Part shown: piece after piece, positions 29,579-35,838 of the stretch | Position numbering within the stretch: position 1 is the first letter of the stretch | Layout of the letters: each line of letters begins with the position of its first letter | Assembly (NCBI GenBank): GCA_030429565.1 | Contig: JAUIFE010000004.1 | Location: 158,848 to 222,847, forward strand | Reading direction: 5' to 3' | Source: Holophagae bacterium | GTDB taxonomy: Bacteria; Acidobacteriota; Holophagae; Acanthopleuribacterales; Acanthopleuribacteraceae | DNA length: 64,000 bases | The notes under the pieces: generated by a model | Told to the model about the DNA's origin: nothing | What the model saw: the letters and a program-made list of their open reading frames with translations, nothing else | Databases searched by the model: none | Program-made: the position numbers and the translations under genes

Positions 29579-30514
29579 TTATGCGGGTTTTTCGATGGGA
29601 AAATACAGTTCGATGATTGGGCTTTCGTCGGTGTCGGCAAAAGGGTCCAGATAGATTTCCATCGGCGGCCGGTTAATCATCCGGTAGGACGATTTGGGTA
29701 GCCAGTGGTAAAGCATATATTCATAAGTCGGCGTCAATTCTAGGAATGGTCCGGTGTGCGGTACCACAATGAACCAGCCGCCGTCGTAGCGCCCTAGACG
29801 CAGAAAGCTGTCCTCTTTGAGGCTGCAATCGCGGGGGACCGTGATGCAAGCGTCGAAGCGGATTTTGTGTTCCGGGGTGATCTCAGGATCGTCGAGACAA
29901 ATCCCCAAGAAGGTGGGTGAAGGTTGGTACAACCCGCGCAAGTGCAGCGCTTTTTGCAAAACGCGCCAAGGCGAGTTTGGTTGCAACGGTTCGGGGCACA
30001 AGGTGTACGCGCCCGACATGCGCATAAACGCCATGGTCAGATCTGGCACCCGCTCGACACGAATCTGATTGGGGTCCATCAGGCGTTTGAGTTCCTCGGG
30101 GAAATCGTCCGGGGTATCGCGCAACTGGTAGCGTTTGCGATACGCCGATGGGTTTAACTTAAACGACTTGCGGAACGCGCGTGTGAAGGTTTCGTGGGTT
30201 TCGTAGCCTGCTTCCAGGGCGATGTCGAGAATCGATTCCTCGCGAGTTTTCAGTTTGTAGGCCGCTTTTTCGAGTCGCAGACGGCGGATATGTGCCTTGA
30301 CGGTTTCGCCGACCAGACGGTTGAAGATGCGGTGAAAATGGAATGGCGAGATGCCGGCGAATTTAGCCAGCTCCTCGAGGTTAAGGTCTTGATCCAAATG
30401 ATTGTGAATGTAGTGGCAGACGTTGCGAATCGTTTGGGTGTGAGAGGGTTCGTCTTCGAACATACTGATCTCGAAAACAGGGGGTTCCGTGTCCTCGAGA
30501 ATGATGTCGACCAT
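29579..30514 (-). CDS. AraC-family regulator with C-terminal GyrI-like effector-binding domain
   Basis: AraC HTH (LEELAKFAGISPFHFHRIFNRLVGETV...IALEAGYETHETFTRAFRKSF) plus a roughly 160-aa C-terminal domain; AGGAGA SD before ATG complement 30512-30514. Confidence 0.8.
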   Translation of the reverse strand: MVDIILEDTEPPVFEISMFEDEPSHTQTIRNVCHYIHNHLDQDLNLEELAKFAGISPFHFHRIFNRLVGETVKAHIRRLRLEKAAYKLKTREESILDIALEAGYETHETFTRAFRKSFKLNPSAYRKRYQLRDTPDDFPEELKRLMDPNQIRVERVPDLTMAFMRMSGAYTLCPEPLQPNSPWRVLQKALHLRGLYQPSPTFLGICLDDPEITPEHKIRFDACITVPRDCSLKEDSFLRLGRYDGGWFIVVPHTGPFLELTPTYEYMLYHWLPKSSYRMINRPPMEIYLDPFADTDESPIIELYFPIEKPA

Positions 30515-31124
30515 GGGGATTCTCCTAACCAATTAATGAAAGTAGGTGGGGAGGGAGTTTCGCGAAAGCCCAAACCTAACCGATTGCGCGATGGTGATGC
30601 ATTCGGTGCCGGGTTGTACGAGAAAGGGCGACGCGAAGTTAATTTGCGGCGTTAAATTAAAAATAAAAGTGGATGAAATAAACCGAAATGCGCTAATAGT
30701 TTGCGCGACTGAGAGGGCGGAATTACTTCTTTTAGTGTACCAGTAATAGGTTGAGAATTATTGCTGAACCTATGAAAAAAGTTCGGATGGCGCCATAAGC
30801 TGAATTTTTGTCACCGAATATCTATTCTGCCTTGCCTTGGGTTGGGTATTTGTGGCTAAAAGGACCGCCTTGCTTCTTATTCCCTGTACCATCATGGCCT
30901 TAAACCGCTTGTGATTCCTGGGAGAGCTCTAAAAAAGAACGACTTTTGCCACGGTTTTCGATGGTTTTTTGACGAGTGAAATTTTAATTTCTTAGGCCGC
31001 TTGATTTTCGTGACGCCTGGGTTCTGTTTGCTCAATGCTACAACTGCAGCCGTTTACTGCGCGTCATTCGCACTTGTTCCTGTTAAGCCCGTTAACTTCT
31101 CGGTGCTGCACCTTTTTATGTCGG

Positions 31125-31166
31125 CGGCCAAAAAAAAGGTGCCGATCCTGGTTGGCTCGGCACCTT
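31125..31166 (-). terminator. rho-independent terminator downstream of the SPFH gene
   Basis: on the minus strand GGTGCCGA-loop-TCGGCACC hairpin followed by T8 (plus-strand A8 at 31133-31140). Confidence 0.5.
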
Positions 31167-31247: not shown

Positions 31248-32753
31248 TTATTCAGGCGCTTTGATGAGTTTGCCGGTTAGCTCGTCTAACACGGTGCCGT
31301 TACTGAAAACGAAGGTGTTCTGAGCCTGGCTCATAATGGTTTCGACGCTTTCCAGCTCGCGCAAACGCATTAAGGTTGGGTTCTGGGCGTACAAACGCGC
31401 GGTGTTGGCTTGGCTGCGTGCCGAAGCGGTTTCCTCGCGACGACGGATCAGTTCAGCTTCGGCGCGTTTCTTCGCCTCGGTGACTTGGTTCATCAGATTT
31501 TTCATCTCGCCAGGGAGAATGATGTCACGAACACCGGCGGCGACAATTTGTACACCGCGGTCTTCGGCCCACTGCTTTAATTCGTCGGCAACCGCTTCTT
31601 GCAAGGCGCTTTTGTCGGTCAGCAGTGCGTCCAAGGCGCGGCAGCCAACCAAGGCACGCAATGCAAGTTGCGCTTGGCGGTACAGAGCTTGGCTGATGAC
31701 GTCGACACTTTGGACCGCACGCAAAACGTCGACGATGCGGTAGGTCACCAAGAGATTCAAACGCAAACTGACTTTGTCGGTGGTCATAATCTCTTGACCG
31801 TTAAGCTCGAGTGCTTGCTCGCGCATGTCAACGGTTTGGGTTGCGAGTTTACCCAGGCCTTTCCAGTAGACATAACGACCTGGCTGCAACAGTGCTTCGA
31901 TTTCACCGTCGCGGGTTAGGACGACGTGTTCGCCTTTGGCAATATCAACCACTTCCAGCCATTGTTTGGCCTCGGGTAACTGAATCAGGGTTTCGATGTC
32001 GCTTGTTTTGATGGGGTTAGGTGTTGGGGTGATCCGTTCAATGCGGACCGAGCCAACGCTTTTCCAAAAGCCGTAACGACCTGGACCGAGCAATTTGCTC
32101 AGGCAATCGTTGATCCAAACCAGGGCACGTTCGCCGTCCCCCAAGTCAACGGGAACCAGGTTTTCACGAATTTTTGGCTCATCGAGTAATTCGACAGCGG
32201 GGAACAGGTTGTTTTTGTAACAGACCTGTTTCTGCCACTTGCCCGCGCCTTTCCAGAAAACATAACGGCCAGGGTCGAGGACGTCTTGGACCAAACCGTT
32301 GAGGTACATAATGGTTTGTTTGTCGTTATCGCAGCGAGTGACCTCAAACTCTTGGTTTGCATTCGGCAGCGCCAGAATGGATTCCAAATTATCGTGTTCG
32401 AAGGGGTCGCGGTTGACGGAAAGGCGTTCAATGCGAAGGTCGCCGGCCGCCTTCCAGAAGCCGTAACGGCCAGGTGACAGCAAGCATTGCAAACGACCGT
32501 CGATCCAGACTAACGCGCGCTCGCTGTCACAGAGGTCAACGACCTCCAGGTAAGGGGTCAGGAGCGGGTCGGTCAGGAGTGCTTCGTGCTTGCAGAAGTC
32601 AGCCTGGGCCACCGTGGTATCCACCATGGTGAGGGACATTTTGGCGAAAGGATAAAACAAGCGATGGCGGCCGCGTTCGAGAACACGGATGAGATCGCCG
32701 TCGCGGAAGACGAGGGCTAACTGAAAACGTGCAACGGTGATTGACTGAATCAT
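31248..32753 (-). CDS. SPFH/Band-7 (flotillin/YqiK-like) protein with tandemly repeated N-terminal modules
   Basis: start MIQSITVAR (ATG complement 32751-32753, AGGAG SD); four to five roughly 60-aa repeats each containing PGRYxFWK; C-terminal SPFH core plus coiled-coil (EAKKRAEAELIRRREE). Confidence 0.8.
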   Translation of the reverse strand: MIQSITVARFQLALVFRDGDLIRVLERGRHRLFYPFAKMSLTMVDTTVAQADFCKHEALLTDPLLTPYLEVVDLCDSERALVWIDGRLQCLLSPGRYGFWKAAGDLRIERLSVNRDPFEHDNLESILALPNANQEFEVTRCDNDKQTIMYLNGLVQDVLDPGRYVFWKGAGKWQKQVCYKNNLFPAVELLDEPKIRENLVPVDLGDGERALVWINDCLSKLLGPGRYGFWKSVGSVRIERITPTPNPIKTSDIETLIQLPEAKQWLEVVDIAKGEHVVLTRDGEIEALLQPGRYVYWKGLGKLATQTVDMREQALELNGQEIMTTDKVSLRLNLLVTYRIVDVLRAVQSVDVISQALYRQAQLALRALVGCRALDALLTDKSALQEAVADELKQWAEDRGVQIVAAGVRDIILPGEMKNLMNQVTEAKKRAEAELIRRREETASARSQANTARLYAQNPTLMRLRELESVETIMSQAQNTFVFSNGTVLDELTGKLIKAPE

Positions 32754-33244
32754 GGTGTTACTCCTGAGGACTCGCTCGCCACTTGGCAAACGGGTTGAAT
32801 TACTTAAATAGATATGGGGAAGGGATGAAACGCTGATCCATTTCCGGGATCGTCCCACTGGGGTCTCACCCATGCGGGGCAGCCACCGTAACGGGTCGAG
32901 GTCGGCCGGAAACCCTGCCCGTGACACGATGCGCAAGGCGGACCGTGGGCGAGGTGGGTTAAGGTGGCGCGACGCGTCGCCGTGTTGGTTGGCTGCCGCA
33001 AGGCAATTGAAATGTTTTCCGCGGAAAGGCCGCCGGCGGACCGGTTGCGTTTCGGCTCAGATCACAAGGACGCCCGGCCGGCCGGCAAAAACGCGGCATC
33101 GTTTTGGGCCCACCGCGACCGGTCCGTAGCTACGGGTGGTGATTGGTGGGCGCGCCGCGACTTGGCGAATCTGTGTCGGGTCGGACGGCTTGTACCGTTT
33201 CATCCCTATCGAAAATGAGGCGTCATGGACGCCGGGATTAAAAT

Positions 33245-33299
33245 GAAGGAATCGAACCTCCGTCAACAGATGATGTATCTGTTGCTCTACCAAATGAGT
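33245..33299 (-). other. tRNA-like fragment (D-arm, anticodon arm with CAT, T-arm) lacking a pairing acceptor stem
   Basis: minus-strand CTCATTTGGTAGAGC (D-arm), ACAGA-TACATCA-TCTGT (anticodon arm), GGAGGTTCGATTCCTTC (T-arm) with tRNA-like spacing, but the flanking 7-mers cannot pair and position 33 is A. Confidence 0.3.
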
Positions 33300-33664
33300 T
33301 TATGGTGGGGTCAAGATGGGGTAGGTTGTAAATCTACCGCCAGGACACTACCTGGAGCTCTCCTCCTGGGAAAGCGTTTCTTGAGGAATCGTTGAAACTC
33401 AAACGCGACACCAGAACGGAACGGGCCGACAACAAGCACAAAAGCGCGTCGGTACGCCGCATGGCGAGCTCGTCTCGCGACTCGGGGAAGCGTAATAGCA
33501 GCCGGCGTGCCAACACTTTTGCTGAGTTAACTATTTGTTTGTAAATATCTAAAATAAATGAAGTTAATCGGCTGTTTTGGTTGGTGGGGCTTTAAACGTT
33601 TCGATTGATTATTGATCGGGTAATCGAGAGTTTAGATAGGTGTCTAAAAAAGGTAGCCTATTAT

Positions 33665-34933
33665 CTAAATAGTTTTTTGAGGTTTCAAAAGTGTGGCACA
33701 TGCCTCAATACCGCGCTTGCTCTCGACGCCTCCAGCGACGTGATCGTCGCCGACTGGTTTCCGTGCCCAACGACGCCCGCATGTCCACCAGTGGCGGAAG
33801 GGTTCGGCCAAGCTTGGTGGTGGCGCTTGTAGCGGACGCATGTGGCAAAAGGCGGCAAGGTCTTGTCGGAGGGCCGCTACCGACGAATAGCGTTGTTGCG
33901 GTGCTTTGGCCAATGCTTGGAGTGCGATCCAACTGACCTTTTCGTAGAGGCGCGTGTGCCAAGTTTCTGGGTCGGTGCCGCGGTCATGGGCGCGCCGGCG
34001 CCGCTCTTCGTAACGCAAATTCCGCCACAGCAGTCGGGGCGGTAACGGACGGCGTTCGCAAATGTCGCGGTAGATCTGTAGCGGGCCCGCGTTTTTAGGC
34101 CAAGTTAACGGCGGCTCGCCAACCAGCAGTTCGTAAAGCAAAACACCCAGTGCATAAACATCGACACGGCCGTCTTGGGTGTCGCCACCGCCGGCCTGTT
34201 CCGGGCTCATGTAACGCAGCGTGCCTGGGGAGTAAGGGCAGTGGGTCAGGTTATGATCGTTGTTGAGATCTTTGGCGATGCCGAAATCGATGAGTTTGAC
34301 GCGGGCAGCACCGTTTTCCCGGCATACGAGTACGTTGTTGGGTTTGATGTCGCGATGAACGATGCCCTGTTGGTTGGCGTAGGCGACCGCATCACAAACT
34401 TGGTCAAAGAGCGCCAGCCGTTGCGTTAAATCGCAACGATGTTCGTCGCAGTAGCGCGTGATCGCTTGGCCGCGCACCAGCTCCATCACAAAGTAGGGCC
34501 GACCGTTGATCAGACGACCCGCCTCGTGCAAGGCGGCAATGTTGGGGTGATTGAGCCGGCTAAGAAATTGTTGTTCAATCGCAAACCGTTCGCGAATCTC
34601 GGTGTTGCCGGTTGCGAGGGTAAGGATCTTGACGGCCACCTGACGGCCGTCTTCTTCTGATTCGGCCAGGTAGACGGTACCCATGCCGCCTTGGCCTAGC
34701 ACCTCACGGAGTCGGTAGGGACCGATTTGCTCTTCATCAAACCCGCCCTGTTTTTGACCGCCGGCCCATTGCGATAAATCGTCCGTTTCCGTTGCCAGAT
34801 AGTCTTTGAGTTCAGCCGCGAGATCGGGTCGTGTTCCAGCCAGTTGGGCCAGATAGCTCCGGCCCGCCTGTGTATCCATGGTGTCTAGGGTTTCCAGGTG
34901 TTGGTTCAGTTCGCGCCAGCGTTTGACGTCCAT
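33665..34933 (-). CDS. Hanks-type Ser/Thr protein kinase immediately downstream of an ECF sigma factor gene (ECF-associated kinase)
   Basis: start MDVKRWRELNQ with GAGGAGAAGG SD; kinase motifs GQGGMGTVYLA, VAVKIL, HRDIKPNNVLV, DFGIAK, SPEQ; begins 18 nt after the sigma-factor stop. Confidence 0.8.
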   Translation of the reverse strand: MDVKRWRELNQHLETLDTMDTQAGRSYLAQLAGTRPDLAAELKDYLATETDDLSQWAGGQKQGGFDEEQIGPYRLREVLGQGGMGTVYLAESEEDGRQVAVKILTLATGNTEIRERFAIEQQFLSRLNHPNIAALHEAGRLINGRPYFVMELVRGQAITRYCDEHRCDLTQRLALFDQVCDAVAYANQQGIVHRDIKPNNVLVCRENGAARVKLIDFGIAKDLNNDHNLTHCPYSPGTLRYMSPEQAGGGDTQDGRVDVYALGVLLYELLVGEPPLTWPKNAGPLQIYRDICERRPLPPRLLWRNLRYEERRRRAHDRGTDPETWHTRLYEKVSWIALQALAKAPQQRYSSVAALRQDLAAFCHMRPLQAPPPSLAEPFRHWWTCGRRWARKPVGDDHVAGGVESKRGIEACATLLKPQKTI

Positions 34934-34950
34934 AGCCTTCTCCTCGCTGC

Positions 34951-35544
34951 TCAAGCCGGTTGTTGCAAGTTGCGTTTGAGCCACATCTTGGCAATCTTCC
35001 ATTCGCGGCGGACCGTGCGTTCCGATAAATCCAAGACAGCGGCGGTCTCATCGACATTGAGTCCCAAAAAGAAACGCAACTCGACAATGGCGGCCTTGCG
35101 TTCATCCAGACGACGAAATTCATCCAGGCACTGATTGAGGCTGATCAACAAGGTCGGGTCCGGCGTGCCGCTATCGGCCTGTTCATCTTCTTCTAATGGT
35201 TGACGTTGCAGATCCTTACCGCGTTTTAGTGAATCGCGTCGGCGGCTTTCTTGGACCAGGATTTGGCGGATGATCATGCGTGCGGTGTTAAAGAAGTGGG
35301 CACGGCTCTCAAACAGGGCGGGTGGGCTACCCAACAGGCGTGCGTATATCTCGTGAACCAAACCGGTCGGCTGTAAGGTGCGGCCTTGGCCGTGGCGCAG
35401 AAACCAATGGGCGATATTGCGCAACTCGCTGTAGATCAGCGGGAAGAGGTCGTCCAACGCTTCTTTGCGACCCCCGTGCCAGCGATGCAGAAGTTGAGTG
35501 ATGTCAGATCGATCTTCATTTCGTTGGGGTTGACGATTAGGCAT
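34951..35544 (-). CDS. ECF-subfamily RNA polymerase sigma factor (kinase-associated type)
   Basis: ITQLLHRWHGGRKEALDDLFPLIYSELRNIAHWFL is a sigma-2 region typical of the ECF group found with Ser/Thr kinases; sigma-4 HTH near the C-terminus (ETAAVLDLSERTVRREW); start MPNRQ with GGAGG SD. Confidence 0.8.
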   Translation of the reverse strand: MPNRQPQRNEDRSDITQLLHRWHGGRKEALDDLFPLIYSELRNIAHWFLRHGQGRTLQPTGLVHEIYARLLGSPPALFESRAHFFNTARMIIRQILVQESRRRDSLKRGKDLQRQPLEEDEQADSGTPDPTLLISLNQCLDEFRRLDERKAAIVELRFFLGLNVDETAAVLDLSERTVRREWKIAKMWLKRNLQQPA

Positions 35545-35838
35545 GAGGACCTCCGCGACTTGAGATGGTTTTACTCTAACCGTCGCCACTCGGCCCTCCC
35601 AGTTACAGATGTAACGGGTTCGCTCGACTTTTGTCCGCCGTCGTTTCGGGTTTCTCGCCGAATAGACCTTGCCTCTCGGAAGAAGTGAATAATCCGTAGA
35701 GAATGCGTTTTTTATTAATTAGTAGCCCCGCCGCTATTTCGAAAAAATGAAAAAAAAGCCGGCCGGTTTTTCCTTGGTCAGGCCTATTGCCTTGGTGACG
35801 ACCGGATGAGCCGGTTACTTTATTTTCGAGGTATTGCT

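Follow-up and report, generated by a model that had tools for sequence, protein, structure and literature searches.

A stomatin-like protein with five predicted SPFH1-type modules, linked to a tRNA-like element, in a Holophagae bacterium

The DNA analysed here, referred to as the window, is a stretch of 64,000 nucleotides from a Holophagae bacterium (GenBank assembly GCA_030429565.1, contig JAUIFE010000004.1, positions 158,848 to 222,847 of the forward strand). On its minus strand we find a gene for an anchorless, stomatin-like (Band-7) protein of 501 amino acids (aa). The first 330 residues of this protein are made up of five tandem modules, each with the predicted fold of an SPFH1 subdomain, and a tRNA-like element is located upstream of the gene on the same strand. 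We consider it fairly likely, with a probability of roughly 65%, that this is the Band-7 protein of a predicted 'Band-7 plus tRNA-like RNA' module linked to RtcB, that its SPFH1 subdomain was duplicated, and that it serves as a scaffold or container in the response to RNA damage. The protein family is already annotated and a tRNA-like partner RNA was predicted for it in 2016, so the system as such is of a known kind. Coordinates of all features are given in Table 1.

Tandem modules and their predicted fold

The initial annotation had described four to five tandem copies of a PGRYxFWK-type unit of about 60 aa over positions 31760..32753. This span is correct and corresponds to aa 1-331 of the minus-strand open reading frame (ORF), in which we distinguish five modules of approximately 65 aa (U1 to U5) with a period of 63-67 aa. 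The PGRY signature is seen at aa 94, 161, 224 and 291, and the degenerate GRHRLFY of U1 at aa 28. Unit pairs were compared by Smith-Waterman alignment, each score being set against 500 shuffles. The repeats are significant throughout U2-U5, where z ranges from 10 to 36; besides the pairs listed in Table 1, a value of 13 is obtained for U4-U5 and of 10 for U3-U4. Apart from its match with U5, the degenerate U1 shows weak similarity to U2, U3 and U4 (z = 1-4). A hidden Markov model (HMM) built from the five units likewise recovers the repeats, with 5 matches in the 501-aa protein and 3-6 in homologues. Because the two-unit blocks U2U3 and U4U5 align at z = 50, we infer that the last expansion duplicated two units together. 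The DNA identity between units amounts to 51-61%, so the repeat is an old one at the protein level and not a recent DNA duplication. Residues of U4 that are invariant or near-invariant family-wide are L204, R209, A210, W213, R217, G225, A228, W230, E239 and H250.

The Pfam Band_7 profile (PF01145) matches the protein with 105.6 bits, against a curated cut-off of 23.6. When single modules are searched, Pfam reports Band_7 for U5 only (profile positions 3-59, E=4e-4) and no Vault repeat. U1 yields a weak Band_7 match (profile positions 7-47, E=0.06) within a fragment of the four N-terminal units. An AlphaFold2 (AF2) model with 120 homologues in the alignment is confident, with a predicted local distance difference test (pLDDT) value of 91, and predicts five beta strands and two short helices for each unit. 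Beyond U5 the chain is modelled as a pair of long strands, the SPFH core helices, a helix at 415-457, a second one at 459-476 and a short C-terminal helix. The earlier suggestions that the units resemble the opening strands of an SPFH domain, and that the last of them leads into an SPFH core and a coiled coil, are therefore borne out. The label 'SPFH/flotillin-like' stands for the SPFH part, given the Band_7 score and an alpha/beta SPFH fold followed by coiled-coil helices as in the SPFH/Band 7 superfamily. It does not stand for the flotillin part, as the core and C-terminal region of Flotillin/YqiK proteins were not found. NCBIfam gave sub-threshold matches to HflK/HflC only.

In structures of erlin and prohibitin the boundary between SPFH1 and SPFH2 is located at the linker between beta5 and beta6 (PMC12624060). 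Reading each unit as an SPFH1-type subdomain is consistent with this boundary, and on the AF2 model the architecture is (SPFH1)x5 - SPFH2 - CC1 - CC2 - C-terminal tail (CC, coiled coil). A structure prediction of the repeats only (aa 1-265, 10-row alignment) was uninformative (pLDDT 47). Foldseek with this repeat-only model returned nothing significant, its local matches of U1 to the N-termini of stomatin and prohibitin being non-significant, and the module profile had zero matches among PDB sequences. The 501-aa protein contains no transmembrane-like segment (maximum 19-residue Kyte-Doolittle value 1.13) and lacks the N-terminal hydrophobic hairpin or transmembrane (TM) anchor of the stomatin/slipin subfamily.

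The tRNA-like element and the apparent transcription unit

The tRNA-like element of the window lies 483-490 nt upstream of the ATG, on the same strand as the Band-7 gene. It is the sole match in the window to R1, a covariance model that we built from 45 linked tRNA-like elements. Its Rfam tRNA match (26.9 bits) stays below the gathering score of 29, and ARAGORN finds no tRNA in the upstream region of the window because this copy is eroded. Among relatives, ARAGORN detects a same-strand tRNA-like gene ending 300-750 nt upstream in 57 of 79 loci (median 474 nt). Once R1 is added, the element is present in 75 of 85 loci (~88%). Linked elements, including further copies that ARAGORN missed, score 60-84 bits with R1, against at most 54 bits for ordinary tRNAs from arrays nearby. 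At the anticodon position the triplets differ between elements and are often unusual (AUG, AAG, AGG, AAA, AUU, UUA), and some loops are of the wrong length.

Covariation among the 45 elements (alignment A5) strongly supports the D, anticodon and T stems as well as the inner four acceptor pairs. In this alignment 91% of the cells are paired, 18 of the 21 pairs show changes at both positions, and neither shuffled nor register-shifted controls come near. Pairing is missing at the outer three acceptor positions in 16-30 of the 45 elements, a family-specific departure from real tRNAs; a 3' CCA is encoded in about 18 of 45. Intact orthologues of the window copy are found in the related loci L087, L088 and L002, and a compensatory change (CAAT/ATTG against CGAT/ATCG) is seen among the intact copies of L087, L088 and Acanthopleuribacter pedis.

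The spacer between the tRNA-like element and the coding sequence (CDS) has no conserved ORF, and its sequence is kept among the relatives of the window. It is predicted to close via a 12-bp helix, in which 33195..33206 pairs with 32822..32832. Equivalent spacers (about 300-600 nt) fold more stably than shuffles in 25 of 25 loci (mean z = -4.8), and for ten Planctomycetota spacers with a mean identity of 53% a consensus of 65 pairs was obtained, 34 of them with compensatory changes. Similarity found by nhmmer with the spacer of the window's group is confined to that group; different groups and phyla share none. Both the linked tRNA-like RNA and the structured spacer are predictions for which Rfam holds no dedicated family: no Rfam family matches the spacer, and no Y-RNA family was detected.

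Further upstream, a sigma-54-type promoter motif is conserved in the relatives of the window. Over the family it precedes the tRNA-like element in 8 of 75 loci, with a chance expectation of 0.005 per locus. The motif recurs in related loci with a divergently oriented RtcR-like gene. A promoter and terminator scanner returned nothing above chance, its 8-nt loop limit excluding the terminator-like hairpin with its 11-nt loop. Read from the sequence, promoter, tRNA-like RNA, structured RNA, Band-7 gene and terminator make up an apparent transcription unit, the parts of which would be co-transcribed.

Concerning the gene start, the longest ORF begins at TTG 32936, whereas the preferred start is ATG 32753. 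The ATG is the likely start because the AGGAG 8 nt 5' of it is conserved in four relatives. The TTG is unsupported because non-triplet indels occur among the relatives in the region 5' of the ATG. Public data contain a protein identical to the 501-aa product (P0001).

Table 1. Features of the Band-7 locus in the window (positions are those of the window)
Feature	Position	Strand	Evidence or remark
Terminator-like hairpin, 10-bp stem, 11-nt loop, then T8	31130..31166	-	~85 nt past stop codon; read directly in the sequence
CDS, anchorless stomatin-like (Band-7) protein, 501 aa	31248..32753	-	ORF and translation; stop codon included
Stop codon of Band-7 gene	31248..31250	-	
Coiled-coil helices, aa 415-476	31326..31511	-	AF2 helices H415-457, H459-476; aligned with post-SPFH helices of stomatin and HflK
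Pfam Band_7 / SPFH match, aa 272-441	31431..31940	-	E=4e-30
Module U5, aa 264-330, resident SPFH1 subdomain (predicted)	31764..31964	-	strands E266-309 continuing into E313-340
Module U4, aa 197-263, A-type	31965..32165	-	best conserved module family-wide
Module U3, aa 134-196, B-type	32166..32354	-	z=15 vs U2 and U5
Module U2, aa 67-133, A-type	32355..32555	-	z=36 vs U4, z=23 vs U5; strands E69-112
Module U1, aa 1-66, degenerate SPFH1-like	32556..32753	-	GRHRLFY replaces PGRYxFW; z=10 vs U5; strands E2-45
Structured spacer RNA (predicted), ORF-free, ~480 nt, tRNA-like element to CDS	32754..33235	-	long-range helix and conservation
Ribosome-binding site AGGAG	32761..32765	-	8 nt 5' of ATG; kept in 4/4 relatives
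tRNA-like element, Band-7-associated type, anticodon-loop triplet CAU	33236..33308	-	model R1 42.7 bits, E=3e-10
Sigma-54-type promoter motif TGGCAC-N5-CTGC (TGGCACGCCGGCTGC)	33498..33512	-	204 nt upstream of tRNA-like element

Variation in module number across the family

A protein search yielded 2917 matches, and source annotations of the relatives read 'slipin family protein' or 'HflC'. The best matches are mostly 366-380 aa long with three units, some are ~438 aa with four, and five of 501-513 aa have five units; one 702-aa relative has seven units by eye. A profile of the internal unit was subsequently searched against 1.84 billion representative proteins (E <= 0.001). It recovered 1379 clusters (50% identity), each protein having between 2 and 11 stretches that match. 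At the upper end are members of 894 aa (about 12 units by eye) and 787 aa (9), followed by several of 600-670 aa (7), and the large members examined all finish with a single Band_7 domain. The search for orthologues of varying repeat number thus shows a family range of 2 to about 12 modules, three being the usual number. Relatives occur in at least 594 species genomes, among Planctomycetota, Acidobacteriota, Verrucomicrobiota, Desulfobacterota and Omnitrophota. A repeated lead segment, as had been noted at the outset, indeed departs from the usual single-domain layout; yet with 1379 clusters it is the rule in a large family and no one-off.

Concerning the history of the modules, the nearest unit usually lies within the same protein (60-62% in P0006, 64% in P0101, alternating A/B pairs in P0007). 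In four-unit homologues the alignment gap coincides exactly with U3. We therefore conclude from these two observations that the module number has changed many times independently. The window locus is syntenic with that of A. pedis (54% identity), and each of the five units of the window is orthologous to the same-position unit of that species. In the open-access literature searched, a scope outside which the 2016 paper of Burroughs and Aravind falls, we found no description of reiterated SPFH1 modules, and none of a 2 to about 12-fold module variation, a vault-like architecture or a structured spacer RNA.

Proposed role and alternative explanations

A link with putative RNA-repair genes is seen in some of the loci. 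An RtcR-like gene adjoins the Band-7 locus in 8 of 80 loci and an RtcB-like RNA ligase gene in 6 of 80 (the RtcR, RtcB and HNH ORF families being named here from sequence alone). In L050 and L084 the gene order is RtcR, tRNA-like element, RtcB, Band-7. According to the passage that cites it (bioRxiv 10.1101/312249), Burroughs and Aravind 2016 had placed RtcB beside a Band-7 protein and a predicted, experimentally unvalidated 'b7a-tRNA' (band 7-associated tRNA).

Our proposal is as follows. The five-stranded SPFH1 subdomain would have been duplicated in tandem, with a two-unit block as the latest step in the window protein. By homology with stomatin, HflK/C and QmcA, SPFH2 and the coiled coil may drive the formation of a large homo-oligomeric ring or cage. 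Stacked SPFH1 modules would then lengthen its wall, such that particle height and volume would be fixed by how many modules (2 to about 12) there are. Because there is neither a transmembrane segment nor an NfeD partner, the particle would probably be soluble or attached peripherally only, like the vault. The most likely role would be that of a scaffold or container in the RNA-damage response, since a sigma-54-type promoter and a terminator enclose the gene along with the tRNA-like and the ~480-nt structured RNA. The tRNA-like RNA could be a cofactor, a decoy or a cargo. The abstract by Burroughs and Aravind reportedly also proposes that SPFH/Band-7 modules, along with a new type of tRNA-like molecule, may be scaffolding cofactors in RNA repair.

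Several observations weigh against this interpretation. RtcB, RtcR and HNH genes are absent across the 64-kb window, and RtcB is adjacent in less than 10% of the loci. With RtcB so rarely adjacent, support for the repair link comes from a minority of the loci, together with a prediction known to us through its citation. Of the four inner acceptor pairs, the window copy of the tRNA-like element has lost two, and an A.C mismatch replaces the otherwise invariant G10-C25 pair of its D stem; the RNA partner may be decaying here. For L089 (894 aa, about 12 modules) and L090 (787 aa, 9) no tRNA-like element was detected in the flanks, where the ORF-free upstream gaps measure 1050 nt and 455 nt, respectively. 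Finally, the net charge of the modules ranges from -4 to +1, and such neutral-to-acidic modules do not suggest direct RNA binding.

The nearest solved relatives of the protein are stomatins, QmcA and HflK: with phmmer, PH and human stomatin are reached at E=1e-17 and HflK at 4e-6, and human stomatin aligns over aa 306-484. This favours an ordinary prokaryotic slipin or stomatin that would serve membrane microdomains or the gating of a membrane protease, the extra modules just adding lipid-facing surface. Moreover, the SPFH1 subdomain of HflK/C, prohibitin and erlin is the one nearest the membrane, in the latter two it touches the membrane via hydrophobic residues (PMC12624060), and peripheral membrane binding would be compatible with a missing TM helix. 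We nevertheless regard such a function as improbable. A TM or hairpin segment is missing in 117 of 120 homologues, which stay below a hydropathy of 1.6, while only 3 of 120 reach this value. An NfeD-family gene is the typical operon partner of prokaryotic stomatins (compare the QmcA-YbbJ structure 8z5g). No NfeD-family partner gene is present in the window, and across 80 loci no protein-coding neighbour is conserved, NfeD-like and protease genes included; the conserved partner is an RNA gene. Still less probable is a true bacterial MVP (major vault protein) homologue, with the modules as divergent vault repeats in a closed, two-halved vault, even though MVP appears to be the only solved structure aligning over the whole length of the 501-aa protein. 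Genuine MVPs carry PF01505 and PF11978, and neither the Pfam Vault repeat (PF01505 and relatives) nor MVP_shoulder (PF11978) is found in the 501-aa protein, its single modules or the 7- to 12-module relatives. For a direct comparison, MVP sequences were gathered with human MVP as bait, which itself is a 100% match to a database cluster. Aligning the family to these by hhalign gave E=0.3 over 90 columns, in the SPFH/shoulder region only, the MVP profile being shallow and vertebrate-only.

Just as doubtful is the idea that the repeats are a labile spacer without a function depending on copy number, and that the tRNA-like element owes its proximity to insertion beside tRNA genes or arrays, for instance on a mobile element. 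Large tRNA arrays and HNH endonuclease genes do flank many Planctomycetota loci, and the eroded copy of the window would fit as well. On the other hand, the same strand and a spacing of 300-750 nt are kept across five phyla, array-free loci included. The tRNA-like element forms a class of its own by its R1 scores, shows compensatory changes and has non-standard, variable triplets at the anticodon position. Furthermore, the modules are well conserved and confidently folded, and a PADLOC search matched no defence system. The reading that we prefer is a scaffold or container in the RNA-damage response, associated with a tRNA-like RNA.

Genomic neighbourhood

In the window as well as in A. pedis and Bremerella, gene calls leave an empty gap of ~0.9-1 kb 5' of the Band-7 gene. 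Directly upstream in the window are genes for an extracytoplasmic function (ECF) sigma factor and a Ser/Thr protein kinase (33665..35589, minus strand), the longest ORFs of which overlap by ~50 nt. This pair is kept in L087, and A. pedis has a two-component system at this place, right upstream of the gap. On the other side, an AraC / GyrI-like regulator is encoded downstream of the Band-7 gene (29579..30532, minus strand). The same layout is observed in A. pedis and L087, where the AraC/GyrI-like gene is followed by MarR-, zinc-ribbon-, methyltransferase-, Spo0M- and Vut_1-type genes.

A different setting is found in about a quarter of the loci, mostly of Planctomycetota. Here the Band-7 gene closes a same-strand array of 10-28 tRNA genes, as seen in the upstream 3-4 kb of L012, L018, L023, L024, L034, L036, L038, L042, L044, L059 and L060. 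HNH-endonuclease-like and sometimes RtcB-like ORFs are scattered in these arrays, and tRNA-Cys is usually positioned just ahead of the Band-7-linked tRNA-like gene.

Comparison with known systems

A close counterpart is the b7a-tRNA module. It shares with our locus a Band-7 gene with a same-strand tRNA-like gene immediately upstream, adjacent RtcB/RtcR genes in a subset of loci, and a sigma-54-type motif, as would be expected under control by RtcR. The window differs in having no RtcB/RtcR within 64 kb and in its eroded tRNA-like copy. Another parallel is provided by Ro60 (Rsr) and its Y RNA (YrlA) in the rsr-yrlBA-rtcBA operon, where a scaffold protein and a tRNA-like non-coding RNA likewise lie beside RtcB under RtcR/sigma-54 control (bioRxiv 10.1101/312249). 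The folds are unrelated, however (a TROVE ring versus SPFH), and no Y RNA belongs to the present loci as far as Rfam families go.

With stomatins and slipins (PH1511, human STOM, E. coli QmcA) and HflK/C the protein has the Band_7 core in common, at 24-31% identity to stomatin SPFH domains, and also the order SPFH1-SPFH2-CC1-CC2-C-terminal from U5 onward. Unlike stomatins, the family has neither a membrane anchor nor an NfeD partner, what is conserved next to it is a gene for an RNA, and the window protein opens with four additional SPFH1-like modules (a standard member with two).

Large cages are built by a number of SPFH proteins, namely HflK/C, flotillin, stomatin, prohibitin, erlin and the vault. 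Among those studied the vault is the apparent exception, since it forms a complete enclosure and is not membrane-associated (PMC12624060). In the present family we may have a second SPFH type without an anchor, found widely among Planctomycetota and Acidobacteriota, with candidate wall modules that vary in number naturally and with an RNA instead of a protease as conserved partner. Three questions thereby become directly testable: whether module number determines how large the cage is, whether an RNA can be held or presented by a bacterial SPFH particle, and whether such a scaffold is used in RtcB-type repair. One could go further and see in the family the vault's equivalent in bacteria, an SPFH shell free of membrane with its wall height set by SPFH1 copies, acting with a truncated-acceptor tRNA-like and a ~400-nt structured RNA in an RtcR/sigma-54 RNA-damage response. 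This extension is speculative and, in our view, rather unlikely as a whole. If true, it would offer a living example of how vault-like repeats can arise from the leading SPFH subdomain, as well as a tractable bacterial model for the function of a vault-like RNA-protein particle.

In MVP, nine repeat domains are combined with a shoulder, described as a type of Band 7 domain, and with a cap helix; the repeat number varies among homologues, with nine in rat and five in an Asgard protein (PMC12962969). The present protein recalls this in outline: tandem N-terminal beta modules are followed by an SPFH-type domain and a long helix, a membrane anchor is absent, a small non-coding RNA is associated, and the module number varies as the repeat number does in MVP homologues. 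Differences concern the Band_7 core in place of MVP_shoulder, the derivation of the modules from the protein's own SPFH1, and the cap-ring region, for which no equivalent was identified; by sequence, the comparisons made here detected no relationship between the two. Because the modules copy the protein's own SPFH1, we favour a parallel solution as the explanation of the likeness to the vault, with a very distant relationship as a possibility, and do not place the protein in the MVP family.

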